DNA of 64,000 nt from an uncultured Gammaproteobacteria bacterium (GTDB lineage Bacteria > Pseudomonadota > Gammaproteobacteria > Steroidobacterales > Steroidobacteraceae), in contig CAWFNJ010000002.1 of the NCBI GenBank assembly GCA_963817195.1, positions 1,511-65,510 on the forward strand. Direction: 5' to 3'. Of this stretch, positions 8,008 through 39,870 are shown one piece after another (the first letter of the stretch is position 1; every line of letters starts with the position of its first letter). The notes beneath the pieces were generated by a model. The model was not told the origin of the DNA, searched no databases, and was given only the letters and a program-made list of their open reading frames with translations. The position numbers and the translations under genes are program-made.

Positions 8008-8151
8008 TTTTCGCGTAGTTTTTTCGTTCACGCGGTCTCGGCCACACCGGCCGCGACCCCGCCATGCCCTGGCAGGGCGCGGGCTAAGCGTTGGCGGCGC
8101 TCGTCGCGGAATCGCGCTATCCTCCCGACCCCGCAAACTCCAGCGCAGCCC

Positions 8152-9085
8152 TTGCCTCCCTTTCCGGATTTCTTCGTCGTCGGCGCGCCGCGGTGCGGCA
8201 CGACGTCGTTCTGCCGCTATCTCGCGCGGAACCCGCAGATCTGCTTCTCGCAGCCCAAGGAGCCGCACTACTTCACGCAGCTCACCCGCGACCCGACCGA
8301 GGCCGAGCTCGCGCGCGATTACCTCGAGCGCTGCTTCGGCCACTACGCGGAGCGCGCACCGCGCGGTCGGCGAAGGATCGGTGTCGTATCTCTACCTTCC
8401 CGCGGCCATCGAACGGATCCGGCGCATCAATCCGGAAGCGCGCTTCATCGCGCTCGTCCGCAACCCGCTGACCATGCTGCCGTCGTATCACCTTCGGATG
8501 CGGTTCCTGCTGCAGGAGGACGAGCCGGATTTCGCTCGTGCGTGGGCGCTCGAGCCGGCACGAGCGCGAGGAGAGAACGTGCCGCGGCACTGCCTCGACC
8601 CTCGTCTCCTCCTGTACAGCAAGGTCGCGCAGCTCGGCGCCCAGGTGGAACGGCTCTTCGCCATGGCCGGCCGCGAGCGCTCGCACGTCGTCGTGTTCGA
8701 CGACCTCAGCGGCGGATCCTCTTCGGGTCTATCGCGGCGCCCTCGATTTCCTCGGCGTCGACTACGACGGCCAGACGCGCTTCGAGTCGAGGTACGAAAG
8801 CCGGATGTACCGGTATCGCTGGCTGCAGCGGATGCTGTTCGTGCCGGCCACGCAAGGGCGGCAAGATGATGGAGACGCTGCAGCAGCGCACGCAGGAAGT
8901 ACAACCCGGACGGCTCGAAGAAACCCGGCCTCATCAAGCGAATCACGAAGTGGAACAAGGTCCCCGCGTCGCCGGCCCCACTGCCGCAGGCGACGAAAGA
9001 CGTCGTGCGCGAAACGCTGCGGCCCGACGTGGAGCTCCTCTCGCGGCTCCTCGACCGCGATCTGACCGGCTGGCTCGCCACCTGA
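8152..9085 (+). CDS. PAPS-dependent sulfotransferase-family protein, frameshifted
   Basis: ORF 8152.. has 'FFVVGAPRCGTTSFCRYL' (5'-PSB loop). ORF 7952..8869 has 'SVSYLYLPAAIERIRRINPEARFIALVRNPLTMLPSYH' (R-x7-S 3'-PB motif). The C-terminus, from manual translation, is '..LLSRLLDRDLTGWLAT*' ending at 9085. Confidence 0.7.
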
Positions 9086-9153
9086 GTCGCCGGCTTGGGG
9101 TCACGGGCGGTCTTTTTCCCGTCCTGCTAAAATTGCAATCCAGCTCCCGAAAA

Positions 9154-9798
9154 ATGCCCATGCCGGACCCCGTTGAAGCGAAGCGGACGGAAGACTCCGT
9201 CCGGCTTTTCCAGAATGACGTTCTGGAGGCGCTGACGCACGTGCATCCCCTCGTACCCCTGCTGTTCTGGGGGCCGGTTGCCGCAGTGCTGCTATGGCGC
9301 AGCGTCGCCGTCCACGGTCTCCCTGCCACCGGGCTTGCCGGGATTGCGGCCCTGGCGCTCTTCATCTGGACGCTGACCGAGTATTGCCTTCATCGCTTCG
9401 TGTTCCACTATCCCGCGCAAAGCCGCGCCGGCAAGTATCTCGTGTTCCTGTTCCACGGCGTGCACCATGCGACGCCGCGGGACAAGTCGCGTCTCGTCAT
9501 GCCGCCCGCGGGCGGCATCCTCCTGTTCATCGTCCTGTACGCGATCTTCAAGCTGCTCGTGCCCGCGCCGTGGGTCGAGCCGTTCATCGCGTTCTTCCTG
9601 ATCGGCTACCTCGCCTACGACTACATCCACTACGCGACGCATCACTTCCCGATGCGCTCGAAGCTCCTGCACTTCCTCAAGGTCTATCACCTGCAGCATC
9701 ACTACGGGGCCAAGGGCGTGCGCTACGGCGTGAGCTCTCCGGCGTGGGATTGGGTGTTCGGCACCTATCCCGCCAATCCGCGCGCCAGTGGCGGCTGA
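9154..9798 (+). CDS. fatty acid hydroxylase-superfamily enzyme, FA2H/Scs7-like (sphingolipid fatty-acid 2-hydroxylase type, no cytochrome b5 domain); apparently intact
   Basis: This is the tail of ORF 8152..9798, from ATG at 9154. It has four His boxes in FA2H-like order: 'HRFVFH', 'HGVHHATPRDKSRLVMPP', 'YDYIHYATHH' and 'HLQHHY', followed by 'GVSSPAWDWVFGT'. TM helices lie between the boxes. Confidence 0.8.
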   Translation: MPMPDPVEAKRTEDSVRLFQNDVLEALTHVHPLVPLLFWGPVAAVLLWRSVAVHGLPATGLAGIAALALFIWTLTEYCLHRFVFHYPAQSRAGKYLVFLFHGVHHATPRDKSRLVMPPAGGILLFIVLYAIFKLLVPAPWVEPFIAFFLIGYLAYDYIHYATHHFPMRSKLLHFLKVYHLQHHYGAKGVRYGVSSPAWDWVFGTYPANPRASGG

Positions 9799-10297
9799 CC
9801 TCCGGCGCGTCGCGCGCCGTCTATGCGTCGCGACGACCCTCGTCGGTTTCGCGCTCCACGTCCCCGCGCACGCCGCAGCACCGGAGCGTTCAGCCGCCCC
9901 AGGACTTCATGGTCTCTGGGTCGACAACCGCGACGCCTCCAAGCACAAGGTCGCGGTGTGGATCGAAGAGTGCGACGGCCTCCTGTGCGGGCGGATCTAC
10001 TGGCTCAAGAAGCCGACGTCGGGCGGCGCGCCGAAGCGCGACCAGAACAACCCCGACGCGACGCTTCGCGACCGCCCGCTGTGCGGTCTCAAGATCATGA
10101 CCGGCTTCAGGCCGGGCGAGGCGCCGAGCTGGTACCGCGGTTTCATCTACAACCCGAACGACGGCCGAACCTTCAACAGCACGATCCACGTGGAGGAAGA
10201 CGGCTCGCTGAAGATTCGCGGATTCGTCGGCGTGTCGCTCTTCGGCAAGACCGTGGAGTGGGTGCGGCCGCGGGAACCCCTGAATCGCTGCAGCTGA
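9788..10297 (+). CDS. DUF2147-like secreted protein
   Basis: ORF 9788..10297 has a signal peptide 'LCVATTLVGFALHVPAHA'. It also has 'GLWVD..VAVWIEECDGLLCGRIYWLKKP' and 'GFIYNPNDGRTFNSTIHVEEDGSLKIRGF', which are typical of DUF2147 as I remember it. Confidence 0.6.
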   Translation: MAADLRRVARRLCVATTLVGFALHVPAHAAAPERSAAPGLHGLWVDNRDASKHKVAVWIEECDGLLCGRIYWLKKPTSGGAPKRDQNNPDATLRDRPLCGLKIMTGFRPGEAPSWYRGFIYNPNDGRTFNSTIHVEEDGSLKIRGFVGVSLFGKTVEWVRPREPLNRCS

Positions 10298-10313
10298 TGG
10301 GCACCAAGCGCCA

Positions 10314-12053
10314 CTAGGCGCGCCGGGCTGTCGCGACGGTCGGCGCCGCCGAGCGCGGATGCGCGTCGGCAGCGACGAGCGTTGCCGTGCCGTCTCCCAT
10401 CCGATAGACGCGATCCGCGACCTCGACCAGCGGAGACTGGTGCGATATCGCCACGATGGTGAGCTCTCCGCGCAGCCCCTCGAGCGTGCGGCAGATCGCG
10501 GCCTCCGTTTCCGGATCGAGCGCGCTCGTCGCCTCGTCGAGGATCAGGAGGCGCGGCCGATGCGCCAACGCGCGCGCGATCGCGACGCGTTGCCGTTGAC
10601 CGCCCGAGAGCTTGCCGCCGCGCTCTCCGACGATCGTATCCAGACCTTCGGGCATCGCCGAGACGACCTCCCAGATGCCCGCTGCGCGCAGCGCGGTCAC
10701 GGCGTCGGCTTCGGTCAGCTCCGGATCGCCCAACGTCACGTTGTTGCGAACGGTGTCGTGCAGGAGCACCGTGTCCTGCGGCACGTAGCCGATCATCCGG
10801 CGCCACGCACGCCAGTCGACCTGCTGCCAGCGGCAGGTCGTCGATCCAGATTTCGCCTTCCTGCGGGCGCAGCAGCGCGGTGACGAGGTCGATGACCGTC
10901 GTCTTGCCGGCGCCGGACGAGCCGACGATCACCGTGATGCCGCCGGCGGGAATCGCGAGCGCCACGTTGCGCAGGATCCAGTGGTCGCGATAGCGAAAGC
11001 CCACGCCTTCGAAGCGGATCTCGCGCGCGAGCGCGGGCGAAACGCCGTCCGGCGGATTCTCGCTCTCGCTCTTCGCTCCGTCGATCGCCGCCCGCATCGA
11101 CCAGTAGGCGCTCTCGCACGTGACCATCTTCTGGTACTCGCGCTGCATCCGGCTCATGTACAGGAGAACGCGCACGAGCAGGAACGCGAGCAGCATCACC
11201 GACGCGAGCGACATCCCGAACTCCACCAGCGCCACGTAGAGCCCGGACGCGATCAGGATCGCGAGCATCGGCTCCTGCAGCGCCCGCAGCGCCTCCTTGC
11301 TGAAGACGTCCTTCTGCAGCGCACGGTTCAACTGCGTCGTGTCGCCTTCGAGCAGCACGTTGGCGAGGTTCTCGCGGGCCATCGCCTTCAACGGCTTGAC
11401 CGATTGCAGGTTGTCGGCGAGGCGCGCGAGCAGCGAGCGCAGGAGCTTGGTCTGCTTCGCCCCGGCGCGACGCGACTTGTGCACCAGCCGGTTCAGCAGG
11501 AAGATGAACACCACGCCGGCGGCGAGCGCCACGAGCGTCGCTCGCCACGACACGAGCAGCGCGATGATCGAATAGACCGTCGCCTGGATGCAAAGCGCGA
11601 GGACGGTCGCGCCGTAGAGATACGATTCGGCGCCGCGCGTCGCCTCGGTGGCGAGGCTGTTGGAGAGCGCCCCGATCGGCTGCCGCAGGTAGTATTCCCA
11701 GCGCGCACCCAGGAGCGATCGAATGAAGTCGAGGCGCAGATCCGTCGCCACGCGCGCGACCGTGTAGCCGACCTGCTTGTTCGCCGCCAGCACGAGCACG
11801 CTCTTCAGGACCATGCCGATGACGACGATCGAGAGGAGCACGCCGACCGTCGGCGTGAGTCCGACCACCGCCAGGACACGCGTCACCGCGGCGCCGAGCC
11901 CCGACGTCGCGCCCCGTCGCCGCCACGCGCGCTCAGGAGCGGCAACAGCGTCGTGAGGCCGACGCCTTCCAGGAGACTCGCGAGCACCAGCGCGCCCAGC
12001 ACCAGCGCGCTTTGCGCGGGATAGGCGCGGCTGAAGGCGAGAAAGAGCTTCAT
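10314..12053 (-). CDS. ABC exporter, fused TMD-NBD half-transporter (MsbA-like lipid/drug exporter), frameshifted
   Basis: Manual start at 12053 gives 'MKLFLAFSRAYPAQSALVLGAL'. ORF 10147..11886 holds the six-TM domain and Walker A 'GSSGAGKTT'. ORF 10314..10796 holds 'LSGGQRQR' and 'LLILDEATSALD'. It lies 28 nt downstream of spt on the same strand. Confidence 0.8.
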
Positions 12054-12081: not shown

Positions 12082-13299
12082 TCAAGCGCCGGTGCCGAGC
12101 TCCGCGGCGACGATGCCCGCCGCCGACCGCAAGTCGGCGAACGCCGCGCTGACGGCGGAGATCTGCTCCTCCGTGTGGGCGGCGCTTACGCTGCAGCGGA
12201 TGAGCGAGACGCCGTTGGGCGTGGCGGGCGGCAGCATCAGGTTGACGTAGACGCCGTGCTGCACGCAGGCTCTTCCAGAACGCGGAGCGCCTCCATCCGG
12301 TCGTTCAGCACCACGGCGATCACCGGGCTCGCCGGCGCGCCCAGCGTGTAGCCCATCGCCGTCAATTCCGCGTGCAGCCGCCGGTAGTTCGCAGCGAGAC
12401 GGGCGCGGAGGTCGCGCCCCGCCGCGAGCTTCACGAGCGCCTGCCGCGTCGAGGCGATCGTCGCGGGCGAAGGCGAGGCGGTGAAGATGTAGGGACGGCT
12501 CGAGTAGCGGACGAGATCGAGCGCCGGGAGGTCGCTTACGCAAAAGCCCCCGGTGCCGCCCAGGCTCTTGCTGAACGTGCCCACGATGAAGTCCGCGTCC
12601 GCGAGCACGCCCACTTCCTCGACGAGCCCGCGGCCGCGCTCGCCCAGCACCCCCACCGAGTGGGCTTCGTCCACGAGCAGGTAGCCGCCGAAGCTCGCGC
12701 TTGACCTCCACGATCTCGGCGAGCGGCGCGCGATCGCCCAGCATGCTGTAGATGCCTTCGACCACGATCAGCGTGTCGGCCGCGCGCGCTCCGAGCCGGC
12801 GCATGCGCTTCGCGAGGTCGTCGACGTTGTTGTGCCGAAACCGGATGACCTCCGCGCCGGCCAGTCGGCAACCGTCGTAGATGCTGGCGTGGCAGTCGGC
12901 ATCGAGCAGCACGACGTCGTTCTGGCCCGTGAGCCCCGCGAGCAGGCCGAGGTTTGCCTGATAGCCCGTCGAGAACACGATCGCGTCGCGCATTTCGTAG
13001 AACGCCGCGAGCTCCCGTTCGAGCCGGCGGTGATTCGAATAGCTGCCGTTCGCCATGCGGGAGCCGGTCGTGCCCGTGCCTTCGGTGTCGAGCGCCTGCT
13101 TCGCCGCCGCGACGCAGTCGGGATCGAAGGTCAAGCCGAGGTAGTTGTTCGTGCCGGCGAGAATGGTCCGCCGGCCGTGAATGATGCCTTCGGTCGGCGA
13201 CAGGATGCGCTCGATCTCGACGCCGAATGGATCGATGCCGATCGTCTCGAGCTCGCGCCGCGCCGACGCCAGGCCCTGGAACTTGTCGAAGAGTCCCAT
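12082..13299 (-). CDS. spt: serine palmitoyltransferase-like alpha-oxoamine synthase (PLP-dependent), frameshifted
   Basis: ORF 12082..13515 has 'ILAGTNNYLGLTFDPDCVAAAKQAL..GSRMANGSY..VFSTGYQANLG..LDADCHASIYDG..IRFRHNNVDDL'. ORF 12237..12674 has 'VDEAHSVGV' and 'GTFSKSLGGTGGF' (PLP lysine). The C-terminus is 'YVNLMLPPATPNGVSLIRCSVSAAHTEEQI'. From memory this is collinear with Sphingomonas SPT. Its ATG overlaps the ACP stop. Confidence 0.8.
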   Translation of the reverse strand: MGLFDKFQGLASARRELETIGIDPFGVEIERILSPTEGIIHGRRTILAGTNNYLGLTFDPDCVAAAKQALDTEGTGTTGSRMANGSYSNHRRLERELAAFYEMRDAIVFSTGYQANLGLLAGLTGQNDVVLLDADCHASIYDGCRLAGAEVIRFRHNNVDDLAKRMRRLGARAADTLIVVEGIYSMLGDRAPLAEIVEVKRELRRLPARGRSPLGGGAGRARPRARRGSGRARGRGLHRGHVQQEPGRHRGLLRKRPPGARSRPLLEPSLHLHRLAFARDDRLDAAGAREARGGARPPRPSRCELPAAARGIDGDGLHAGRAGEPGDRRGAERPDGGAPRSGRACVQHGVYVNLMLPPATPNGVSLIRCSVSAAHTEEQISAVSAAFADLRSAAGIVAAELGTGA

Positions 13300-13571
13300 C
13301 AGCTTGCCCGGACGAGCTGCTCGATCTGCTTCGCGAGGTCGCCGACGGTCTTCACGTCCGGAAGGATGCTGACCGGAATGGAGATGTCGAACCGATCCTC
13401 GATCTGCAGCATGAGGTTCATGACCTGGAGCGAGTCGAGGCCCAGGTCGCCCAGCAAATCCGTGTCTTCGCCGACCTCGACGCGCCCTTGCGTCAGCGTC
13501 GTGAGCTCGGCGCAAATCTCCGCCACGATCTGCGGATAGTCGACGGTAACGTTTCCTGTCATGGCGTTCAT
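13299..13571 (-). CDS. acyl carrier protein (dedicated, sphingolipid-cluster type)
   Basis: This is an intact 90-aa ORF with 'DTDLLGDLGLDSLQVMNLMLQIEDRF' (DSL phosphopantetheine site). It has ATGA overlaps with both neighbours, at 13299-13301 and 13568-13571. Confidence 0.8.
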   Translation of the reverse strand: MNAMTGNVTVDYPQIVAEICAELTTLTQGRVEVGEDTDLLGDLGLDSLQVMNLMLQIEDRFDISIPVSILPDVKTVGDLAKQIEQLVRAS

Positions 13572-14515
13572 GGCTTTCGCGTGGCGTAGGCTCGGGCGAG
13601 GCCCTCTTCGAGCCCGACGGCCGCCCGCCAGCCCATTGTGCTGGCGTAGTCGTGACTATCGCACAACCAGTCCGGGTGGGTGATCTCGCGCACCTTGCCG
13701 GGGGTCAGCATCGGGTCGTAACCCAGAAGCCGCGCGGCCGCGAGATTGGCCGCGGCCGCGAGCTTCAACAGCGCCACGGGAATCGGCAGCCGATGGACCG
13801 TCGCGCCGCCGCGCAGCACGCGTCCCGCGACGGCGAGCACGGTGTCCCAATCGTAGCCTCCGGCGTGCCCGTCATCGAGCTCGAAGCTGCGGCCGTAGCC
13901 CGCGTCGGCCGCGAGCCAGCGCAGCACCGCGGTCGCGAGATCGTCGACGTACAGCAGCGAAAAGCGCCCGGTGCTTCCCGCGGGCAGCGGCGCCAGCCCT
14001 CGCGCCACCCAGCGAAAAAGCGGCCGCAGCTCCTTCTCGCCGGGCCCATAGACGGCAGGCGGGCGCAGCACCGTCCAGCGCAACTGGTCCGGGGCGGCTT
14101 CCACCGCAACCTCGCCGTGGCGCTTGCTGGCGGCGTACGCCGACAGTTGGGGCATCCGCGCCGCCAGCGAGGAGATGAACAGGAATCGTGGTGCCGGCGT
14201 AAGGCTCGCGGCGACTCGCACGAGCCGGCGAGTGCCTTCGGCGTTGATCCGCTCGAACCCGGCGCGGCCGGCGCCGCGCACGGTCCCGGCGCAGTGAACG
14301 ATCGCCTCGGCGCCGGTCACGAGCGCACGCAACGATGGCTCGTCGGCAAGATCGCCTTCGACCCATTCGACGCCGCGCTGCGGCACCGGCGTGCGCCCCG
14401 ACCGGCGGCGATAGAGCGCGCGCACGCTCCACCCGCCCTCGACGAGCCACGGCAGCAGCGCCGAGCCGATGAATCCGGTCGCTCCGGTGAGCGCGACTTG
14501 GGGTTGGACGGTCAA
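13568..14515 (-). CDS. NAD-dependent epimerase/dehydratase-family reductase (candidate ceramide/3-keto reductase, CerR-like)
   Basis: This is the C-terminal ~315 aa of ORF 13568..16057. It has 'LTGATGFIGSALLPWL' (Rossmann) and 'SAYAASKRHGE' (YxxxK). TTG start inferred at 14515. It sits between the acyl-AMP ligase and the ACP. Confidence 0.65.
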   Translation of the reverse strand: MTVQPQVALTGATGFIGSALLPWLVEGGWSVRALYRRRSGRTPVPQRGVEWVEGDLADEPSLRALVTGAEAIVHCAGTVRGAGRAGFERINAEGTRRLVRVAASLTPAPRFLFISSLAARMPQLSAYAASKRHGEVAVEAAPDQLRWTVLRPPAVYGPGEKELRPLFRWVARGLAPLPAGSTGRFSLLYVDDLATAVLRWLAADAGYGRSFELDDGHAGGYDWDTVLAVAGRVLRGGATVHRLPIPVALLKLAAAANLAAARLLGYDPMLTPGKVREITHPDWLCDSHDYASTMGWRAAVGLEEGLARAYATRKP

Positions 14516-14607: not shown

Positions 14608-16379
14608 CTACGACGCGGCCGAGGCGACCGCCGACTGGCTCGCGTCCCCGGCGCCGCTGCGCGCGGCCTTGCGCTCCTGCGCACGCCGCTCGAGGTAGTC
14701 CTCGCGCGCGGCGGCCCGCGACAGCTTGCCCGACGACGTGCGCGGCAGCGTGTGCCGCGGCACGAGCTCGATCACGCAGGAAATGCCGAGCTCTTCGTGA
14801 ATTTCGCGATGGAGCCGCTGCGTGAGCTTGCGGCCTTCCGCCGGATCGTTGATGTTCGACTGCACGACGACCACGGCGACTTCCTCGTCTTCGGAACCGA
14901 GCACGAAGAACGCCGACGCGTCCATCGACCGCAGTTCCGGCTGCCGCTCGGCGATGTGCTCGATGTCCTGCGGCCAGATGTTGCGGCCGTTGATGATGAT
15001 CATGTCCTTGTGGCGGCCGGTGACGACGATGCTGCCCTCGACCAGGTAGCCGATGTCGCCCGTGTCGAGCCAGCCGTCGTGCGACAGCGACTGGCGCGTC
15101 TGCTCGGGCTGCGCGAAATACCCGGACATGACGCTCGGTCCGCGCACTTTTATGCGCCCGACATGAAGATCGGGAAGGGGCCTTCCCTGGTCGTCGCGCA
15201 CGGCGACCTCGTGTCCCGGCAGCGGCCCGCCGCAGCGGACGAAGCCGTTGACCCGGCCCGTGTCGCTGACCGGCGGGAATCACGCGCAAATGCTCCGCCA
15301 GGTGATCGGCGTCGATCCAGTCGACGACCACGCCGCTCTTGAGCGGCGAGAAACTGATCGCGAGCGAGCTTTCGGCCATGCCGTAGCAGGGGACGAACGC
15401 GCGGGGATCGAATCCGGCCGGCGCGAGCAGCTTGGCGAAGCGGTCCGGCAGCTCGGCGCGAATGGGCTCGGCGCCGATGCCGGCGATGCGCCACGCCGCG
15501 AGGTCGTAGCCCGCGACGTCTTCGGGACGAATCCGGCGCGCGCAAAGCTCGTAGCCGAACGGCGGGCTGAACGAGATCGTCGCCTTCGTGTTGGTCATCA
15601 ACTCGAGCCAGCGGCGCGGCCGCATCGCGAAATCGCGCGTGTCGAGATAGTCGATCGAGCGCTGTGTCGCCATCGGCGCGAGCATGCAGCCGACGAGACC
15701 CATGTCGTGGTAGAACGGCAGCCACGAGACGCAGCGGTCGTCGGGCTTGATGTCGAGACCGTGATTGACCACGCCGGCGAGATTGCTCAAGGACCGCGTG
15801 CTGGGTAATGACGACGCCGCGCGGAAAGCTCGTGCTGCCCGAGGTGTATTGCAGGTATGCGGTTTCGGTCGGGCCGCTCGGGTGGAGCTCGACGTCTTGC
15901 TCCGGCAGCTCGTCGAAGTCGGCGGGCGTGCCCGTGAAAGCGAGGTCCATGCCCTCGGCTGCCTCGCGCAGGAAACGCAGGAACTGGGTCGACGCCGTGG
16001 CGACCGATGCCCCGCAACCCACGAGCAGCCCGCGCAGCCGGGCAACGTAGGCGGCATGGCCGCCCAGGTTCGCCGAGGCCGGCAGCGCCACCGGAACGAG
16101 ACCGGCGTACTGGCACGCGAAGAAGAAGCGCAGGAAATCCGGGCTGGTCTCCGCGATCACCGCGACGCGCGCGCCGCGCTCGAGCTCGAGCGACAGGAGC
16201 CGGCGCGCGAGCTTCTGCGCCTCGATGCGCAGCGTGCGATAGGGAAGCACCGCGGCGAGCTTGCCGCTGCCCGCGTAGAAGTTCGCGCCCGTGTCTCCCT
16301 GCGCGGCGTAATCCAGCGCGTCGGCCAGGCTCGCGAAATCGGCACGCCGCAGCGGCAGCGAATTCACGGTCGGCGTCAT
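14608..16379 (-). CDS. fatty acyl-AMP ligase / acyl-ACP synthetase-type adenylate-forming enzyme, frameshifted
   Basis: ORF 15150..16463 starts at 'MTPTVNSLPLRRADF' and has 'YLQYTSGSTSFPRGVVITQ'. The middle part lies in ORF 13568..16057. ORF 14608..15201 has 'DGWLDTGDIGYL' and 'LPRTSSGKLSR'. Confidence 0.75.
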
Positions 16380-16899: not shown

Positions 16900-18056
16900 T
16901 TGACTCAGGATCTCAGCGCCCATCCGCGTTACCGCCGTCGACAGCGATGCGGCGCTGGATCGGTTCCTGAGCGTTCCGGCGTGGGTTTTCGCATCGGACC
17001 CGGCGTGGGTCGCGCCGCTGCGCCTGGAGCGGCGCATGCACCTGTCGCCCAAGCACAATCCCTACTTTCAGCATGCCCGGTGGCAGGCATGGATCGCGTG
17101 GCGCGGGAGCAAGCCCGTCGGGCGGCATCAGCGCGCAGATCGATGCGCTGCACCTCGAGCGCTACGCCGACGCCACCGGCTTCTTCGGCATGCTGGATGC
17201 GGAGGATCGGCAGGACGCTTTCGCGGCGCTGCTTGGGACCGCGGAGCGCTGGCTCCGCGACAACGGGATGCGGCGCGTCCGCGGCCCGTTCGGCCTGTCG
17301 ATCAACGAGGAAGCCGGACTGCTGATCGAGGGCTTCGACACCCCGCCCGTCTTCATGATGGGACACGCCCGGCCGTACTACTCGACGCGCATCGAGGCGC
17401 AAGGCTATCGCAAGGCGGTCGACACGCTCGCCTATACGATCCACGCGGATTTCCAGCCGTCGCCCGTGATGGCGAAGCTCGTCGCCGCGGCGCAGAAGCG
17501 CGTGCATGTCCGGCCGCTCGATCGGAAGCGCTTCGACGCCGAGATCGCGCTCCTGCGCGACATCTTCAACGATGCCTGGGCGGAGAACTGGGGATTCCTC
17601 CCGTTCACCGACGCCGAATTCACGGAGCTCGGCCGGAACCTGCGCTTTCTCGTCGATCCCGGGCTGATCCGGATCGCCGAGGTCGACGGCGAGCCAGCCG
17701 CGTTCATGGTGGTCATCCCCAACCTCAACGAGGCGATCCGCGGGCTCGACGGTCGGCTGCTGCCGTTCGGCTGGGCGAAGCTCCTGTGGCGGCTCAAGGT
17801 TCGCCACCCGAAGCACCGCCCGCGTCCCGCTGATGGGCGTGCGGCGGAAATTTCAGCGCACGCGCCTCGGTCCCGCGCTCGCCTTCCTCGTGATCGCCGC
17901 CGCGCAGCCCAGGACCCTGGAGCTCGGCGTCAAGGAAGTCGAGCTGTCGTGGATCCTGGAGAACAACGAAGGCATGCGCAGCATCATCGAGTCGATCAGG
18001 CGGCTCACGCGTACAAGCGCTATCGCATCTACGAACGAGAGCTCGATGCAGATTGA
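16900..18056 (+). CDS. GNAT-fold acyltransferase, candidate bacterial ceramide synthase (bCerS-like), frameshifted
   Basis: Manual N-terminus is 'IRVTAVDSDAALDRFLSVPAWVFASDPAWVAPLRLERRMHLSPKHNPYFQHARWQAWIAW'. ORF 17073..18056 has 'RVRGPFGLSINEEAGLLIEGF..PFTDAEFTELG..IRIAEVDGEPAAFMVVIPNLNEA'. ORF 17833.. has 'VELSWILENNEGMRSIIESI', and the gene ends 'YKRYRIYERELDAD'. It is divergent from the spt operon. Confidence 0.5.
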
Positions 18057-18132
18057 CGACCCCCACGCTCACTGCGTTCGCTGCCCCCAGAGGGGGAGCA
18101 CAGGCGCCCTTCGGACGGCCGGGCGGGCGCTG

Positions 18133-18918
18133 ATGTCCTTTGCCGCCGTCGTGCTCGCCGCCGATCGCGGCCGGAACGATCCGGTGGCGCTCGCCGCCGG
18201 CGTCGCCGCCAAGTGCCTGACGCCGATCGCCGGCAGTCCGATGGTCTCGCGCGTCGTGCGCGCGCTCGAGCGTAGCGGACGCGTCGGACGCATCCTGCTC
18301 TGCGGCCCCGCCGAGGAGACGGTCGAAGGATCGCTCGACTTGCGCGAGATGACGACGGACGGCGACATCGGCTGGATCGCGCCGCAGGCAACCCCCTGCA
18401 CGAGCGCCGCGGCGGCACTGGCCACGCTCCCGAGCGACGCGCCGGTGCTCGTCACCACGGGCGATCACGCGCTGCTCGAGGCCGAGATGGTTCGCCTCTT
18501 CCTGGACGAGGCTCTCGCCCGCGGCGGCGACGTCGCCGTGGCACTCGCGCCGTACGACCTCGTCCGCGAAGCCTATCCGCAGACGCGGCGCACCGTGCTC
18601 GAGTTCAGCGACGGCCGCTTCTGCGGCTGCAACCTGTTCGCCTTTCTCACGCCGCGCGGCCGCGAAATGGTGAAGGTCTGGAAACAGGTCGAGGACGATC
18701 GCAAGAAGCCCATTCGCGTCATCGGCCTCGTCGGCTGGGGCGCGATGGCGCGCTATGCGCTCGGAATGCTGAGCCTCGCGGACGGCGTCCGGCGGATATC
18801 GAAGCAGACGGGGATCGCGGCGAGCGTGGTCACCCTGCCCTTCGCCGAGGCGGCGATCGACGTCGATACCGTCGCGGACCTGGAGCTCGTGCGCGCGATC
18901 GCGGCTAGGCGGCAGTGA
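18133..18918 (+). CDS. NTP-transferase-fold protein (MobA/CofC-like nucleotidyltransferase); apparently intact
   Basis: This is the tail of ORF 17833..18918, starting 'MSFAAVVLAADRGRNDPVALAAGVAAKCLTPIAGSPMVSRVVRAL'. It also has 'VLVTTGDHALLEAEM' and 'AAIDVDTVADLE'. The fold-level call comes from the N-terminal glycine-poor NTase pattern only. Confidence 0.45.
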   Translation: MSFAAVVLAADRGRNDPVALAAGVAAKCLTPIAGSPMVSRVVRALERSGRVGRILLCGPAEETVEGSLDLREMTTDGDIGWIAPQATPCTSAAAALATLPSDAPVLVTTGDHALLEAEMVRLFLDEALARGGDVAVALAPYDLVREAYPQTRRTVLEFSDGRFCGCNLFAFLTPRGREMVKVWKQVEDDRKKPIRVIGLVGWGAMARYALGMLSLADGVRRISKQTGIAASVVTLPFAEAAIDVDTVADLELVRAIAARRQ

Positions 18919-19640
18919 CCCAGGCGGCGCCGGGCGTCGACGCGCGTTCGAGATCGGCCGGGCTGTCCACTTCGGTCCATCCCGTCGCCGGAATCTCCTG
19001 CGTGTAGACCGACCCGCTCTTCGCGAGAGCGTCGATCAGCGACAGGTACCACTGCGACAGCGCCGCCGGCGTGCGCAGCGCCCGGTCCATCGCGTCGCGG
19101 AAGAGGCGCGCGCCCTCGCCGCGGAAGGTCATCATCCCGATCGATTCCGCGTTCACCTCGTCGCGCGGGAGCTTCTTGCCCACCTGCAGCAGCCGATCGC
19201 CGTCGCGGATCACTTTCATGTCGTCGTCGTCGTATTGATCCTTGCGGCTGACGGCGAGCGTGATCGGGTGCTCCGGGCGCCGCGAGGAGCCGCTCGAGCA
19301 CCGCGGCGTCGAACAGCGTGTCGCCGTTCAGGAGCAGGAACTCGCGCTCCATTTCGCCGCGCGCGACCCAGCAGCTGACGAGGTTGTCGGTGATCGTGTA
19401 GAACGGGTTGTAGAGGGTGCGGATGCGCCGCGGGCCGTAGCGTTCGGCGAGCCCCGCTTCGACGAGCTCGGCGCCGAAGCCGACCACGACCGTGATGTCG
19501 TCGACGCCGCAGCGCAAGAGCGCGTCGATCTGCCGGCCGATGAGCGGGCGCCCCAGCACCGGAAGCATGCATTTCGGCGCGCGCTCGGTGAGCGGCAGCA
19601 ATCGCTTGCCTTGACCGGCGCTCAGGATAATCGCTTTCAC
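18905..19640 (-). CDS. sugar/alcohol-phosphate nucleotidyl(cytidylyl)transferase, LicC/IPCT-like; one frameshift
   Basis: GTG start at 19640. ORF 18753..19694 has 'KAIILSAGQGKRLLPLTERAPKCMLPVLGRPLI..DITVVVGF..LLLNGDTLFD'. ORF 18905..19219 has 'ESIGMMTFRGEG..QWYLSLID..TGWTEVDSPADLE'. Its 3' end overlaps the convergent gene by 14 bp. Confidence 0.65.
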
Positions 19641-19896: not shown

Positions 19897-21310
19897 ATGA
19901 CCGACCCCGTTCCCACGAACTCCGACGCCCGAAGCCGAGGCCTTGCGGCCGACGCGGGTCACGACCGCGGCAAACGCGCTGGTGGATCGCCGTCGCCGTG
20001 GTCGGCATCGCCGCCATCGGCGCGGCGATCTGGTACGCAAGCGGGAAGCCGCTCACCGCCACGGCGACCGGGCGCCTCGCGTGGCGCCATGGGCGAGAAA
20101 GGCGGCAAGGGCGATGCCCCGCGCACGACGCCCGTCGTCGCCGCGCCGGTCCGCCAAGGCACGCTCGACGTCTACCTGTTCGCGCTCGGCACGGTGACGC
20201 CGCTCAACGCCGTCGTCGTCAGGAGCCGCGTCGACGGGCAGCTGATGAAGGTCGCCTTCGAGGAGGGCCAGATGGTGAAGGCGGGCGATCTCCTCGCCCA
20301 GATCGATCCGCGTCCGTTCGAGGTGCAGCTCACGCTCGCCAACGGACAGACGCGCGCGCGACCAGGCGCTGCTCGAGAACGCGCGCGTCGACGTCGAGCG
20401 CTATCGCACGCTGCTCGCGCAGGATTCGATCTCCAAGCAGCAGGTCGACACGCAGGAGTCGCTGGTGCGCCAGTACGAGGCCGCGGTGCAGGCCGACCAG
20501 GGCAACATCGACAACGCGAAGCTGCAGCTCACGTACACGCGCGTCGTCGCGCCGATCGGCGGCCGCGTCGGCCTGCGCCAGGTGGACCCGGGCAACATCG
20601 TGCGCGCCGCGGACGCGAACGGCATCGTCGTGATCACGCAGCTGTCGCCGATCGGCGTGGTGTTCCCCATTCCCGAGGACACGCTGCCGCGCGTGATGAA
20701 GCGGCTGCAGCGCGGGCGATCGCATCCCGGTCGACGCCTTCGACCGCGCGCAGAAGGAAAAGCTCGGCAGCGGGCCGGCTGCTGACCGCCGACAACCAGA
20801 TCGACACCACGACGGGCACGATCAAGCTCAAGGCCGAATTCGCCAACGCCGACGGCGTGCTCTTCGCGAACCAGTTCGTCAACGTGCGCATGCCGGTCGA
20901 GACGCGGCCGAACGCCACGCTCGTGCCGACGGCGGCGATTCAGCGCGGCGTCGCGGGAACGTTCGTCTACGTCGTCAAGGACGACAAGACGGTGACGGTG
21001 ACGCCGGTGCAGATCGGCTCGACGCAGGGCGAGGTCGACGTCGATCGAAAGCGGCGTCGCTCCGGGCGCGATGGTCGTCGTCGACGGCGCCGACCGGCTG
21101 CGCGAAGGCGCGAAGGTCGAGGTCGTCACGCGCGATGCGCCCGTTCCGGCGACGCCGCGAGGCGGCGCGGCGCGGGAAGCGCGGCGGCAAGGACGGCGGC
21201 AAGGCGGCGGCAAGCGGCGGCAAGGATGGCGCGGGCCACGCGGGAGCGCAGACTCGAAGCGACTGCGCACGCGCCGCGATGGCGACCGCTCGCGCCGAAA
21301 GTCGCTCTGA
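19897..21310 (+). CDS. mdtA: RND efflux periplasmic adaptor (MdtA/MuxA family), frameshifted
   Basis: ORF 19834..21462 has 'VVAAPVRQGTLDVYLFALGTVTPLNAVVVRSRVDGQLMKVAFEEGQMVKAGDLLAQIDPRPFEVQL' and 'ADNQIDTTTGTIKLKAEFANADGVLFANQFVNVRM'. ORF 20465..20785 has 'LQLTYTRVVAPIGGRVGLRQVDPGNIV'. Confidence 0.8.
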
Positions 21311-21316
21311 CTCCCG

Positions 21317-24300
21317 ATGAATCCGTCACGCCTGTTCATCCTCCGGCCGGTGGCGACCTCGCTGCTGATGGTCGCGATCCTGCTCGTCGGGCATCGTCGC
21401 GTACCGCGTGCTGCCGCTGTCGGCGCTGCCCAAGTTCGACTATCCGACGATCCAGGTCGTGACGCTGTATCCGGGCGCGAGCCCCGACGTGATCACCTCG
21501 TCGATCACCGCGCCGCTCGAGCGCCAGTTCGGCCAGATGCCGGGCCTGAACCAGATGTCGTCGACGAGCTCCGGCGGCGCTTCGGTCATCACGCTGCAGT
21601 TCAGCCTCGAGCTGCCGCTCGACGTCGCGGAGCAGGAAGTGCAGGCCGCGATCAACGCCGCCGGCAACTTCCTGCCGACGCGACCTGCCGCAGCCGCCGA
21701 TCTACAACAAGGTCAATCCGGCCGACACGCCGATCGTGACGCTGGCGCTGACGCTCGACGCACGATGCCGCTGCCGAAGATCCAGGATCTCGCCGACACG
21801 CGGCTCGCGCACGAAGATCTCGCAGCTCGCCGGCGTCGGGCTCGTCAGCATCAGCGGCGGCCAGCGGCCGGCGGTGCGCATCCAGGCCAATCCGAAGGCG
21901 CTCGCCGCGTACGACCTGTCGCTCGACGACCTGCGCACCGCGATCGCCAACGCCAACGCGAATCAGGCCAAGGGCAGCTTCGACGGCCCGACGCGCGCGT
22001 CGACGATCGACGCCAACGACCAGCTCAAGTCGGCCGACGAATATCAAGTCGATGATCGTCGCCTACCGCAACGGCGCGCCGGTGCGGCTCGTCGACGTCG
22101 CCGACGTCATCGACGGCGCCGAGAACACGCGCCTCGCGGCGTGGGCGAACGACTCGGCCGGCGGTCATCGTCAACATCCAGCGCCAGCCGGGCGCGAACG
22201 TCATCGAGGTGGTCGACCGCATCAAGCGCCTGCTGCCGCAGCTTCAGGCGTCGCTGCCGGCCGCGGTCGACGTCACGATGCTGACCGACCGCACCGTGAC
22301 GATCCGCGCGTCGGTGCGCGACGTGCAGTTCGAGCTGCTGCTCGCCGTCGCGCTCGTGGTGATGATCATCTTCGTGTTCCTGCGCAACGTGCCGGCGACC
22401 GTCATCCCGAGCGTGGCCGTGCCGCTGTCGCTGATCGGCACGTTCGCGGTGATGTACCTCGCCGGCTTCTCGATCAACAACCTGACGCTGATGGCGCTGA
22501 CCATCGCCACGGGCTTCGTCGTCGACGACGCCATCGTGATGATCGAGAACATCTCGCGCTACATCGAGAAGGGCGAGTCGCCGCTCGAGGCGGCGTTGAA
22601 GGGCGCGGAGCAGATCGGCTTCACCATCATCTCGCTGACGGTGTCGCTCATCGCCGTGCTGATCCCGCTGCTGTTCATGGGCGACGTCGTCGGCCGGCTG
22701 TTCCGCGAGTTCGCGATCACGCTCGCGGTCGCCATCCTGCTGTCCGCCGTGGTCTCGCTGACGCTGACGCCGATGATGTGCGCGCGCCTCCTGCGCCACG
22801 TCCCGGTGCGCGAGCAGGGACGCTTCTTCCGCAAGAGCGGCGAGTGGTTCGACCGCGTGATCGCCGGCTACGCGCGCATGCTGACCTGGGTGCTCGACCG
22901 CCAGGGCGCGACGCTGCTCGTCGCGCTCGCCACGCTGGCGCTCACCATCGTGCTGTACATCGTGATCCCCAAGGGCTTCTTCCCGGTCCAGGACACCGGC
23001 GCGATCCAGGGCATCTCGGAAGCCTCGCCGACGATCTCGTTCGCCGCGATGGCCGAGCGCCAGCAGGCGCTCGCGAAGGTGATCCTGCAGGACCCCGCGG
23101 TGGAGAGCCTGTCGTCGTTCATCGGCGTCGACGGCACACAATCCGACGCTGAACAGCGGCCGCTTCCTGATCAACCTGAAGCCGCTCGTCGCAACGCGAG
23201 CGGCAGCGCCACCGACGTCATCCGGCGCCTGCAGGAGTCGCTCGCCGGCGTCGAAGGCATCGCGCTCTACATGCAGCCGGTGCAGGACCTGACCATCGAG
23301 GACAAGGTGAGCCGCACGCAATACCAGTTCTCGGTGGAGGACGCGAACGCGGACGAGCTCGCGCACTGGGTGCCGAAGCTCGTCGAGCGGCTGCGCCAGG
23401 ATCCGCGGCTCGCGGACGTCGCGAGCGACCAGCAGGAAGGCGGGCTGCAGGCGTACGTCGAGATCGACCGCGCGGCGGCGAGCCGCTTCGGCATCACGCC
23501 GGCGATGATCGACAGCGCGCTGTACAACGCTTTCGGCCAGCGCCTCGTCTCGACGATCTTCACGCAGACCAACCAGTATCGCGTCGTGCTCGAGGTCGGG
23601 CCGGAGTTCCGCAAGGGCCCGGCCGCGCTCGACGGCATCTACGTCAATGCGCCGAACGCCAGCGCCGCGGCCGCAGCCGCCGGCGCGGGCGTCGGGCACC
23701 GCCGCGCCAGCGGCCGAGCGCCGCGACGCAGCAGGTCCCGCTGTCGGCGCTCGCGCGGGTCGTCGAGCGCACGGCGCCGCTCGTCGTCAGCCGCATCGGG
23801 CAGTTTCCGGCGGCCACGATTTCCTTCAACCTGGCGCACGGCGCATCGCTGGGCGACGCCGTCAAGGCCATCGAGGCGGCGCAGCGCGACATCGGCATGC
23901 CGGCGAGCGCGCAGGTGAAGCTCCAGGGCGCGGCGCTCGCGTTCCGCGCCTCGCTCGCCAACCAGCTGCTGGCTGATCCTGGCGGCGATCGTCACCGTCT
24001 ACATCGTGCTGGGCGTGCTGTACGAGAGCTACATCCACCCCATCACGATCCTGTCCACGCTGCCGTCGGCGGGCGTCGGCGCGCTGCTCGCGCTGCTGCT
24101 CACGCGGCAACGATCTCGACGTGATCGCCATCATCGGCATCATCCTGCTGATCGGCATCGTGAAGAAGAACGCGATCATGATGATCGACTTCGCGATCGA
24201 CGCCGAGCGCGAGCGCAAGCTCGCGCCGCGCGACGCGATCTTCGAGGCGTCGCTGCTGCGCTTCCGGCCGATCATGATGACGACGATGGCGGCGCTGCTG

Positions 24301-24516
24301 GGCGCGCTGCCGCTGATGATCGGCTGGGGCGTGGGCTCCGAGCTCCGCCATCCGCTCGGCATCACGATGGTCGGCGGCCTGATCGTGAGCCAGGCGCTGA
24401 CGCTGTTCACCACGCCGGTCATCTATCTCGCGTTCGACCGGCTCGAGCGCCGGATGAAGGCGCGGCGCGAGCGCTGCGCGCGGCGCGGGCCGCGGCGCTC
24501 GGGCAGCGGGCCATGA
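21317..24516 (+). CDS. mdtB: RND permease (MdtB/MuxB family), heavily frameshifted
   Basis: It starts '[25 protein letters not shown]'. The core in ORF 22209..23918 has '[28 protein letters not shown]'. The C-terminus in ORF 24121..24516 has '[42 protein letters not shown]'. The gene is readable only by hopping across at least 8 listed ORFs. Confidence 0.85.
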
Positions 24517-24522
24517 GCGACG

Positions 24523-27500: not shown

Positions 27501-27660
27501 TCGGCGGAGGACTCATCCTGAGCCAGCTCCTGACGCTGTACACGACGCCGATCGTCTATCTCTACCTCGACCGCCTGAGCGACCGGGCCGCGAGCCTGCG
27601 GCGCACGGCGCTGGCGGCGCGCGCGTCTCGCACGCACGTCCGGCGGACGCGCCGCAATGA
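24523..27660 (+). CDS. mdtC: RND permease (MdtC/MuxC family), heavily frameshifted
   Basis: ORF 24523.. has '[25 protein letters not shown]'. ORF 25159..27228 has '[28 protein letters not shown]'. ORF 27228.. has '[24 protein letters not shown]'. The manual tail is '[30 protein letters not shown]'. Confidence 0.85.
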
Positions 27661-29047
27661 CGCGCGCCCGCTCCTTCGTGCTGCGCATCGTGCCGCCATC
27701 GTCGCCGTGGTCGCGCGCGTCGCGCTGCCGCGTCGTGCACCGTCGGACCCGACTACGTCCGGCCCGCCGCCGATGTCCCGCCCGCGTACAAGGAAGCGAA
27801 GGATGGCAGCGTCGCGGCCGCGCCGAGCGCGATTCCCGCCGGCGCCTGGTGGGAGATCTTCGGCGATCCCGAGCTCGAACGCGCTGGAATCGCAGGTCGT
27901 GCTCAACAGCCAGACGATTCGCGCCGCCGAAGCGCGCGTCGCGCCAGGCGCAAGCGCTGATCGACGTCGCCCGCGCGCCCGGGCTTCCCGACGCTCAACG
28001 CCGCCAGCACCAACAAGAAAGTCGGGCTCACCGCCGGCTGGGAGCTCGATCTGTGGGGCCGCATCCGGCGCAGCGTCGAAGCGAGCGAGGCCGGCGCCGA
28101 AGCGAGCGCCGACGACCTCGCGGCGGCGACGCTCTCGATGCAGGCGCAGGTCGCGCAGAACTACTTCCTGCTGCGCGTCCAGGACGCGGAAATCCGGCTG
28201 CTGCAGGACAGCGTCGCGCGCTACGAGCGATCGCTGCAGCTCACGCGAAACCAGTACGACGCCGGCGTCGCATCGCGCGGCGACGTCGTGCAGGCCGAGG
28301 CGCAGCTCAAGTCGACGCGCACGCAGACGCTCGACGGCGCAGTTGAACAGGGCGCAGCTCGAGCACGCGATCGCCGTCCTCGATCGGCAAGGCGCCCGCC
28401 GACTTGAGCATCGCCGCCACGACCGCCGACATGCGCGATCCCGGCGGTGCCTCCGGCGCTGCCTTCCGAATTGCTCGATCCGGCGGCCGGACATCGCCGC
28501 CGCCGAACGCCGGATGGCGGCGGCCAACGCGCAGATCGGCGTCGCGCAGGCCGACGTTCTATCCGTCGGCGCGTCTCTTCGCCGGCGGCGGCATCGACAT
28601 CAGCTTCGCCGGCGGCATCGCGCTCGCCCAGTACATTCTCGACGGCGGGTTGCGCGAGGCGACGAAGGCGCAGGCCACGGCAGCCTACGAGGAGACCGAT
28701 CGCCAATTACCGGCAGACGGTGCTCGTCGGCGCTCCGCGACGTGGAGGACAATCTCGTCGCCGTGCGCATTCTCGAGGAGGAGGCCGGCGTGCAGGCCGC
28801 GGCGGTCAAGGCGTCGCGCGAATCGGTGACGATCACGAACAACCAGTACCGCGCCGGCATCGTCACGTATCTGGCCGTCGTCGTCGTGCAGGCCGCGGCG
28901 CTCGTCAACGAGCGCGCCGACCTCGCCATCGAGGGCCGGCGCCTCGTCGCCAGCGTGAACCTGATCAAGGCGTTGGGGGGCGGCTGGCAGGCGCCCGCCG
29001 ACCGACACAGGCGAGCGCCGCGAAGTAGGTACGAACGCGGCGGATAG
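27657..29047 (+). CDS. RND efflux outer-membrane lipoprotein (NodT/OpmB family), frameshifted
   Basis: Manual N-terminus is '[19 protein letters not shown]...[14 protein letters not shown]'. ORF 28138.. has '[56 protein letters not shown]'. ORF 27707..29047 ends '[17 protein letters not shown]'. Confidence 0.75.
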
Positions 29048-29074
29048 CGCGCGCCGGCGCGACGCTCAGCTTGT

Positions 29075-30039: not shown

Positions 30040-30260
30040 GAAGTCGGCGTCCGAGCGCCGAACGACGAGCGCGACGCGAAAGCGCGCTCGTCCGCGTCGA
30101 TCGTGAGCTCAACGGGTCGCATGCGGTTAGTATATGATGCCGCGCTTCGGCGCCTCTTGAACCGCGCCCCTCCGCCTTCGTCGCGCAGCGAAGCGCGACC
30201 TCCAGCGGCGCCTCCGCCGCTCGAACCCCGCAGGCCCGAAAGATCGACATCGACGACAAC

Positions 30261-33427: not shown

Positions 33428-33480
33428 CGCGGCGCCACCATCCTCGTGCCAGGCTTTCGCGGGGCGTTCGGAGGCCTCGC

Positions 33481-39865: not shown

Positions 39866-39870
39866 CAAGA
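39862..39870. other. abrupt junction between two unrelated coding sequences (assembly/concatenation breakpoint)
   Basis: The epimerase reading frame ('..LGPALGM') and an internal parC codon series ('KKLPLLGDLRDESTE', from 39867) abut. There is no stop, spacer, RBS or start codon between them. Confidence 0.75.

Follow-up and report, generated by a model that had tools for sequence, protein, structure and literature searches.

The genetics of bacterial sphingolipid synthesis is a recent field, developed in Caulobacter, Bacteroides and the myxobacteria. To our knowledge, the head groups of the bacterial sphingolipids known so far are based on phosphate, sugars or cysteate. The described system that invites the closest comparison here is the gene cluster CC_1168-CC_1152 of Caulobacter crescentus, which is responsible for sphingolipid/ceramide-phosphoglycerate (Olea-Ozuna et al. 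2024, PMC11324152); the route by which sphingolipids reach the outer membrane is stated there as unknown. A stretch of 64,000 nucleotides from an uncultured gammaproteobacterium of the family Steroidobacteraceae (assembly GCA_963817195.1, contig CAWFNJ010000002.1; hereafter the window, within which all positions are counted) carries a cluster related to that of Caulobacter and, beside it, a gene for a sulfotransferase (ST) of the type that uses 3'-phosphoadenosine 5'-phosphosulfate (PAPS). Common to both organisms are the gene order aasR-cerR-acpR-spt (CC_1165-1162; PMC11324152) and the families of CC_1161 (Tam41/CDP-DAG-synthase-like), CC_1159 (CDP-alcohol transferase), CC_1158 (phosphoesterase) and CC_1153 and CC_1152 (nucleotidyltransferases). 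Caulobacter also has a bCerS gene, and the window a putative, bCerS-like one. Unlike the window, the Caulobacter cluster contains no sulfotransferase, FA2H-like hydroxylase, DUF2147 gene or ABC exporter, and the word 'sulfotransferase' has 0 matches in the supplements of PMC11324152.

The association of ST with sphingolipid genes is well supported by comparative genomics, and the product is hypothetical; we propose, with modest confidence, that the locus makes a 2-hydroxylated, O-sulfated ceramide-derived lipid. The core ceramide cluster is of an already known kind. What is new with respect to the literature searched is the PAPS sulfotransferase as a recurrent member of sphingolipid clusters, together with the pair formed by an ABC half-transporter and a DUF2147 protein. 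An initial annotation, made from the sequence, had been aware of no sulfotransferase assigned to a bacterial sphingolipid pathway, and a literature search on sulfotransferases or sulfation in bacterial sphingolipids likewise found nothing relevant. A reported 'ceramide-1-sulfate' in Acetobacter was discarded, as it seems to have arisen when the lipidomics label Cer-AS was spelled out incorrectly.

Judged by its sequence, ST is a member of the PAPS-dependent sulfotransferase superfamily, and transfer from PAPS is its predicted activity. In a Pfam scan at E <= 0.001, PF13469 (Sulfotransfer_3) matches at 52.1 bits (cut-off 27; 1.3e-13) and PF00685 (Sulfotransfer_1) at 23.6 bits (cut-off 22). Both PAPS-binding motifs are present exactly as named in the initial annotation: the 5'-phosphosulfate-binding (5'-PSB) P-loop (GxxR/KxGTT) as GAPRCGTTS at 8182-8208, in which G11-T18 are invariant among 17 homologues, and the R-x7-S 3'-phosphate-binding (3'-PB) motif as RNPLTMLPS at 8459-8485, with R104 and S112 invariant in the same set. 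A K-E-x-H-Y-F motif is also invariant across the homologues. The window copy carries single-base insertions (see below); once they are removed, the protein is 90% identical over 100% of its length to intact proteins of 309-312 amino acids. Inspection by eye revealed neither a signal peptide nor a membrane segment. By sequence, the nearest solved structure is 3rnl, an uncharacterised Alicyclobacillus sulfotransferase (E 1.4e-19), followed by heparan-sulfate 3-O-/N-sulfotransferases, tyrosylprotein sulfotransferases and CurM/olefin-synthase domains, and the top Foldseek matches of an AlphaFold model are all sulfotransferases, the nearest being 3rnl, heparan-sulfate 3-OST/NST and the CurM sulfotransferase. 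Kinship with Nod-factor sulfotransferases, which the initial annotation had named as grounds for abandoning a lipid substrate, was not found: the NoeE model (NF052394) reaches 16.8 of the 500 bits required, with the P-loop alone aligned.

The evidence that ties this enzyme to sphingolipids is its gene neighbourhood, whose survey had been proposed in the initial annotation. One genome per species was scanned for ST, which yielded 80 loci, and sphingolipid genes were then mapped on them (individual loci, of this and other scans, bear L-numbers such as L001, L084 or L108); a locus counts as linked where such a gene lies no more than 10 kb from ST. Linkage was found in 27 of the 80 species, and in 19 of the 51 loci flanked on each side by 5 kb or more. 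ST recurs in several unrelated arrangements, at least four different gene orders joining it to sphingolipid genes. Type A keeps the full layout of the window (ST, fatty-acid hydroxylase and DUF2147, with ABC and spt) in 10 betaproteobacterial species and 9 metagenome contigs, so that the adjacency, whose absence from related genomes would have told against the initial annotation, is in fact conserved; the genomes with this arrangement are mostly metagenome-assembled genomes (MAGs) labelled 'uncultured beta proteobacterium'. Type B comprises 12 Gammaproteobacteria, with an ST 44-52% identical, in which an OlsC/LpxO-like hydroxylase gene and ST are followed by convergent head-group and ceramide genes (Tam41-like, CDP-alcohol transferase or kinase, phosphoesterase, LptG2, LptF2, both nucleotidyltransferases, bCerS and aasR). 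Three Lysobacterales have the order bCerS, NTP3, ST (type C); type D (L055) places ST between a 51%-identical homologue of the window's ABC protein and bCerS; and in type E (L048) bCerS lies about 5 kb from ST. The putative bCerS, of about 390 amino acids, is present in cluster types A to E; it adjoins aasR in every cluster type, in beta- and gammaproteobacterial clusters alike. Across the other genomes, the commonest neighbour of ST is the Tam41-like gene, and in four relatives (L084, L005, L041 and L082) all the genes of the supercluster described below are contiguous with ST. A lipid acyl hydroxylase, either FA2H-like or of the unrelated OlsC/LpxO-like family, lies within 1.5 kb of ST at 21 of the 80 loci. 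De novo clustering of open reading frames (ORFs) around ST was noisy, owing to shadow ORFs and frameshifts; its leads (Tam41-like, metallophosphoesterase, LptF/G and LpxO-like) were then confirmed by Pfam. At unlinked loci the commonest neighbour of ST is a MetA-pathway-like beta-barrel (PF13557), found about 1 kb upstream in L018, L025, L027, L030 and L033 (Nitrosomonas and relatives) and accompanied in Nitrosomonas by a large glycoside hydrolase and an alpha-amylase. Among cultured bacteria, homologues of ST occur in Nitrosomonas communis Nm44, Nitrosomonas sp. Nm34 and Nm132 and Nitrococcus mobilis Nb-231.

It might be supposed that this adjacency is functionally meaningless, and that ST, with a soluble metabolite or a peptide as its substrate, has simply travelled along with the cluster. 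The very large size of the ST family would suit such a view, as would the unrelated contexts of ST in Nitrosomonas, Nitrococcus and many Lysobacterales, but we consider it quite improbable: linkage recurs in the several gene orders listed above and on separate branches of the neighbour-joining ST tree, over which the linked groups are scattered; 27 of 80 far exceeds the ~1% expected, by our own estimate, for a random gene, a cluster of ~20 kb and a genome of several Mb; and in L052, a type B locus, the start of ST overlaps the preceding lipid hydroxylase gene.

A second alternative accepts an envelope substrate and places it elsewhere, in lipid A/LPS, an ornithine lipid, a capsule or an exopolysaccharide, with envelope-lipid genes merely co-clustering. 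The gammaproteobacterial neighbours of ST do include LptF/LptG-type permeases and the OlsC/LpxO-family hydroxylase (best NCBIfam match OlsC, with 250 bits where 450 are required), the solved sulfotransferases that come closest to ST work on glycans, and many ST loci are not linked to sphingolipid genes. The same loci, however, carry bCerS-, AasR-, Tam41-, CC_1159- and CC_1158-like genes, which are sphingolipid-specific in Caulobacter; the ORF clustering around ST detected no recurrent gene of LPS or O-antigen biosynthesis; and the ST of clade A is co-directional with an Scs7-like hydroxylase. We therefore regard this alternative as unlikely, if the most serious of those weighed here, and return to a ceramide-derived substrate.

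The hydroxylase, of 214 amino acids, is intact, and the description given of it in the initial annotation holds throughout: it begins 69 nt beyond the ST stop codon (9083-9085, counted from its final base), and it contains the histidine boxes HRFVFH, HGVHH, HYATHH and HLQHH as well as the blocks RLVMPP and WDWVFGT in the FA2H pattern. PF04116 matches it at 65.4 bits (cut-off 31), and alignment with yeast Scs7 (PDB 4zr1; E 2.6e-27) covers the whole catalytic domain with HRFxFH, HGxHH, HxxxHH and HLxHH in register; the residues of the histidine motifs are invariant in 15 homologues. In JGI annotation, homologues are labelled 'dihydroceramide fatty acyl 2-hydroxylase'. When metagenome contigs were scanned with the homologue alignment, 80 hydroxylase loci were obtained. 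Core ceramide genes were present at 51 of them, and at 25 of the 28 whose flanks extend for 3 kb or more in each direction; the FA2H-like hydroxylase thus belongs regularly to the ceramide clusters of proteobacteria. A hydroxylase of FA2H type at sphingolipid genes is, taken alone, already known from other bacteria, functional FA2H homologues having been tied to sphingolipid formation in myxobacteria (Ring et al. 2009, as cited in PMC10002949).

Another lipid might nevertheless be the substrate of this enzyme: an ornithine lipid, for instance, as with its superfamily relative OlsE, or else a fatty acid, whether free or bound to ACP. Within a superfamily as broad as PF04116, sequence reveals neither electron donor nor substrate, and acyltransferases of LpxL type flank the gene in gammaproteobacterial clusters. 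Against this, the best solved match over the entire domain is a ceramide 2-hydroxylase, the gene stands immediately behind cerR at 25 of the 28 well-flanked loci, and the myxobacterial homologues, as cited, are linked to sphingolipids, so that we give a non-ceramide substrate only a small chance of being correct.

The gammaproteobacterial (Halieaceae-type) clusters have the order acp-spt-(EPSP-synthase-like)-phosphoesterase-NTP3-bCerS-aasR-cerR-(LpxL-like)-hydroxylase-(LpxL-like), without ST. In these clusters (L083, 9022-11552, and many of L108-L162) two homologues of LpxL/HtrB-type lipid A acyltransferases flank the hydroxylase and an EPSP-synthase-like gene follows spt, which suggests acyloxyacyl or enolpyruvyl decoration of ceramide.

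In the window, the segments at 8.1-19.6 kb and 29-36 kb together are, as far as gene content can tell, a proteobacterial sphingolipid supercluster of the Caulobacter kind (Table 1). This identification follows from the equivalog matches of Spt and AasR, the aasR-cerR-acpR-spt order and the homologues of CC_1161, CC_1159, CC_1158, CC_1153 and CC_1152. An RND efflux operon separates the half concerned with ceramide synthesis from that concerned with the head group; the two halves are contiguous in the relatives L084, L041 and L082. At a G+C content of about 70%, plain ORF lists and filters based on G+C at third codon positions (GC3) were unusable, owing to shadow ORFs and frameshifts, and they were replaced by three-frame reading of each strand, homologue mapping and a GC3 frame model.

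Table 1. Genes of the sphingolipid supercluster and its surroundings in the window
Feature	Position	Strand	Basis of assignment
PAPS-type sulfotransferase ST, ~310 aa, TTG start	8152..9085	+	three-frame translation, DNA alignment, Pfam, motifs
Scs7/FA2H-like membrane di-iron fatty-acid hydroxylase, 214 aa, intact	9154..9798	+	PF04116, Scs7 alignment
DUF2147 protein, lipocalin-like family, signal-peptide-like N-terminus	9788..10297	+	PF09917 at 5e-30
ABC half-transporter (TMD + NBD), ~577 aa, after spt	10314..12053	-	PF00664, PF00005
Serine palmitoyltransferase Spt, frameshifted	12082..13299	-	NF047599 632.8 bits vs 500, frameshift-corrected protein
Dedicated acyl carrier protein, AcpR-like, intact	13299..13571	-	PF00550; same position as CC_1163
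NAD-dependent epimerase/dehydrogenase, CerR-like, intact	13568..14497	-	PF01370; same position as CC_1164
Fatty acyl-AMP ligase, AasR-like, frameshifted	14608..16379	-	NF006624 792.6 bits vs 600
bCerS-like gene, frameshifted	16905..18050	+	tblastn, 67-76% identity to the 399-aa gene of L001
NTP_transf_3 nucleotidyltransferase, CC_1153-like	18124..18900	+	homologue mapping
NTP_transferase, CC_1152-like, one frameshift	18905..19640	-	homologue mapping
RND efflux operon: membrane-fusion protein, two MdtB/MdtC-like pumps, outer-membrane factor	20085..29050	+	
Metallophosphoesterase, CC_1158-like	29172..30075	-	
CDP-alcohol phosphatidyltransferase, N-terminal extension, CC_1159-like	30261..31410	+	PF01066
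DAGK_cat/YegS-type lipid kinase	31633..32496 (start uncertain, maybe upstream of 31633)	+	PF00781; NCBIfam YegS-like weak
Tam41-like nucleotidyltransferase, CC_1161-like, frameshifted	32496..33430	+	PF09139 weak
HIT-like protein, 148 aa	35608..36042	+	HVHFHVIPR motif; Pfam HIT 20.6 bits, just under cut-off

The bCerS-like gene matches no Pfam or NCBIfam model, and NCBIfam likewise has no model for the Tam41-like, hydroxylase and DUF2147 proteins. The best NCBIfam similarity of the CC_1159-like transferase is to phosphatidylinositol-phosphate synthases (46.6 bits, below the cut-off), a resemblance that leaves open a head group of the inositol- or glycerol-phosphate type rather than phosphoglycerate. 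The HIT-like gene recurs in the sphingolipid superclusters of L084 (8544-8990), L046 (19723-20148) and L055 (14854-15279), and in L084 and L005 it has the Tam41-like gene on one side and ST on the other; its product may belong to nucleotide-activated head-group chemistry. Genes for LptF2/G2 were not found in the window. A scan for promoters and terminators from 7.3 to 17 kb gave no signal above chance, and an Rfam search of the window returned no RNA match. Directly upstream of ST, a 210-aa ORF without a Pfam match (7386-8018, +) has a conserved counterpart in L002 alone (68% identity over 110 aa), and it is for this reason probably outside the module. Further along the window, a frame resembling subunit A of topoisomerase IV/gyrase (39865-41234, +) retains only positions 247-420 of PF00521 and the C-terminal beta-propeller; its N-terminal catalytic part is missing and it directly follows a frameshifted NAD-epimerase gene. 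Either truncation of the gene or a junction created by misassembly may account for this.

Two further genes of the window suggest how such a lipid might leave the inner membrane. As the initial annotation had it, a secreted DUF2147 protein overlaps the end of the hydroxylase, by 11 nt, and an ABC half-transporter starts on the opposite strand 28 nt past the spt stop codon (ATG at 12053, stop at 12082-12084). The overlap is retained in relatives, DUF2147 being present at all clade-A loci and translationally coupled to the hydroxylase at every type-A locus. The protein matches HP1028 (PDB 4inn) weakly, and the DUF2147/HP1028 family has recently been proposed, on synteny grounds, to be a carrier of hopanoids (lipids). 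In the ABC protein, Walker A (10900-10917), the LSGGQ signature (10596-10610) and Walker B (10515-10550) are all recognizable. The exporter had been called MsbA-like, which is correct for its architecture and was rejected as a family assignment, as the protein scores 237.8 bits against a cut-off of 602 for MsbA (TIGR02203). It falls below the cut-offs of all other NCBIfam equivalogs too (NF008381, 176/867; PglK, 188/1000; HepA, 274/725), and the nearest solved structures, ABCB, TmrAB and PglK, are generic; by these comparisons it is a generic type IV half-transporter of the ABCB type. The position after spt is kept in type A, and the homologue in L055 stands beside ST. An export route for the sphingolipid composed of an ABC flippase and a periplasmic lipocalin is a reasonable proposal, which we infer wholly from these gene positions and family assignments.

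Taken in sequence, the predicted steps would be as follows. AasR, AcpR, Spt, the bCerS-like acyltransferase and CerR would produce dihydroceramide, as in Caulobacter, and the Scs7/FA2H-like enzyme would hydroxylate its amide-linked acyl chain at position 2. ST, as a soluble cytoplasmic enzyme, would then work on the inner side of the inner membrane and O-sulfate one of the lipid's hydroxyls from PAPS, the candidate acceptors being the acyl 2-OH, the ceramide C1-OH and a hydroxyl of a phospho-head group; the last would be built by the products of the Tam41-like, lipid-kinase, CDP-alcohol-transferase and phosphoesterase genes. The ABC half-transporter may flip the resulting anionic lipid, and the secreted, lipocalin-like DUF2147 protein may receive it in the periplasm. 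Because ST pairs repeatedly with a 2-hydroxylase of either of two unrelated families, there are hints that the acyl 2-OH is the acceptor, or at least that hydroxylation precedes sulfation. The C1-OH and the head group stay in play since the Tam41-like gene is an equally frequent neighbour and natural ceramide 1-sulfates exist, namely as products of sponges and bryozoans (PMC3280575). Provided that ST acts on a sphingolipid at all, our rough apportionment gives the acyl 2-OH the largest share, somewhat under half, and divides the rest about equally between the C1-OH and the head group.

Several observations weigh against a 2-hydroxylated, O-sulfated, ABC-exported sphingolipid, which the initial annotation had suggested and which the recurrence of the neighbourhood favours. 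The sulfated product, all substrates and the transport roles are ones that we infer from gene context. The closest solved relatives of ST act on glycans or peptides, the AlphaFold model was built on a shallow alignment of 17 sequences (mean pLDDT 64.6) and served for fold class only, and its family, with 2,481 clusters at E <= 1e-30, is a large one that probably has several substrates. About two-thirds of the ST species are unlinked: 53 of the 80 loci have no sphingolipid gene within 10 kb, although several of these are short contigs. Among them are Nitrosomonas, Nitrococcus and many Lysobacterales, where no lipid gene recurs and where, in Nitrosomonas, the neighbours of ST are a MetA-like outer-membrane protein and glycosidases. 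Conversely, most clusters bearing the hydroxylase are without ST, and no PAPS-synthesis gene was seen near the window's cluster. The exporter, which is not an orthologue of MsbA, is clade-restricted, its position being conserved only in clade A and one gammaproteobacterium, and the candidate flippase of Caulobacter, CC_1166, is Wzx-like and not an ABC protein (PMC11324152). Finally, the window copy of ST is frameshifted. The initial annotation was right about the identity of this gene, which Pfam and the motifs bear out, but not about a continuous frame: single-base insertions split it, and consequently its two PAPS motifs fall in different frames.

The nature of these frameshifts merits closer attention. 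The ST reading passes through frames 0, 1, 2, 0 and 1, and a DNA alignment with four relatives places four extra single bases near 8355, 8710, 8860 and 8900 (alignment columns 212, 569, 715 and 755), at none of which is there a homopolymer. There are two frameshifts in the ABC gene (near 11900 and 10810), two in spt (near 12680 and 12270) and two in aasR; the relatives' copies of these genes are intact. The RND pumps, ABC-2 transporters and a CBS/nucleotidyltransferase gene are frameshifted as well, and over ~52 kb of coding sequence the GC3 frame model detects no fewer than 45 points at which the frame switches on the same strand with no stop codon close by; 34 of these are +1. Over the window as a whole (1-64000), single-base indels, mostly insertions and non-homopolymer where checked, amount to about 1 per kb. 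Because the shifts are spread through the whole window, errors of assembly are the likeliest cause of those in ST, ABC, spt and aasR, and the organism probably has intact genes; the window looks like an unpolished or error-rich assembly. Pseudogenisation specific to the locus was rejected as the principal explanation on the same window-wide distribution. It could still be argued that the shifts are real and that ST, perhaps with the whole pathway, is a decaying set of pseudogenes, given four frameshifts in the 934 bp of ST against about 1 per 0.8-1.2 kb elsewhere and the damage in spt, aasR and ABC. This we hold to be very improbable: shifts of the same type, mostly single-base insertions, occur in the pumps, transporters and other genes along the 64 kb, the fragments of ST are still 84-90% identical in amino acids to intact homologues with every motif residue kept, and the excess in ST (4 against ~1 expected) is weak, with a Poisson P of ~0.03 by our own estimate.

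A wider proposal can be made, which we put forward as tentative: O-sulfated sphingolipids may be an unrecognised class of bacterial outer-membrane lipids in soil and aquatic Beta- and Gammaproteobacteria, in which a dedicated PAPS sulfotransferase would act on ceramide prehydroxylated by either of two unrelated 2-hydroxylases and the product would be exported by the ABC and DUF2147 proteins. If so, bacterial sphingolipid synthesis would gain its first O-sulfation step, and with it a new head-group chemistry. Such lipids would be anionic, carrying head-group charge without phosphorus, and could serve as phosphorus-sparing anionic lipids of the outer membrane; bacteria that make them could also be a microbial source of the ceramide sulfates of sponges and bryozoans. 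Where a Wzx/Lpt2 route has been proposed for Caulobacter, the ABC exporter and its lipocalin-like partner are nominated as a different one. Intact orthologues exist in public MAGs, which makes the proposal directly testable.

Set beside known systems, the locus shares individual components with several. In Caulobacter, the acyl hydroxylase is an unrelated enzyme of the DesA family, CC_0202, encoded elsewhere (PMC11324152), and the window differs further in its flippase candidate (ABC as opposed to the Wzx-like CC_1166), in a lipid kinase of the DAGK_cat type and in that no LptF2/G2 genes were found in it. With FA2H/Scs7 the window hydroxylase has in common the catalytic membrane domain, the histidine motifs and the association with sphingolipids; unlike Scs7 it has no N-terminal cytochrome b5 domain, none being found by Pfam and the alignment beginning with residue 183 of the Scs7 chain 4zr0, which has 392 residues. 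The ABC protein has the same TMD+NBD half-transporter architecture as the type IV flippases MsbA and PglK, with Walker A, LSGGQ and Walker B.

The sulfotransferase has counterparts of several kinds. Eukaryotic cerebroside sulfotransferase, GAL3ST1, makes sulfatide by PAPS-dependent O-sulfation, with the sulfate on galactose. Its likeness to the role proposed for ST is one of functional analogy only, as no glycosyltransferase is conserved beside ST, and from the Pfam scan of ST, in which PF13469 and PF00685 were the sole matches and no galactose-3-O-sulfotransferase profile appeared, the two are taken to be different families within the sulfotransferase fold. With 3rnl and the heparan-sulfate sulfotransferases, ST shares the 5'-PSB P-loop, the 3'-PB motif and a K/N-E-x-H-F/Y-F motif, which we take to be catalytic in 3-OST; identity to these enzymes is 14-24%, they are without a lipid-cluster context, and their substrates are glycans or none has been assigned. 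The CurM/olefin-synthase domains, which are among the fold and sequence neighbours of ST, use PAPS to sulfate an acyl-chain hydroxyl (beta-hydroxyacyl-ACP), but they belong to polyketide synthase megasynthases, their sulfate is a leaving group and the similarity is weak (E 0.057 to 3e-4). The sulfonolipids of Bacteroidota (capnine, sulfobacins) owe their C-S sulfonate to cysteate condensation; like the proposed lipid they are sphingolipid-like and contain sulfur, but no PAPS sulfotransferase is involved. The OlsC/LpxO family, lastly, is unrelated in fold (PF05118) to the FA2H-like enzyme and is not present in the window, and in the gammaproteobacterial clusters it is this family that takes the FA2H-like enzyme's place beside ST.

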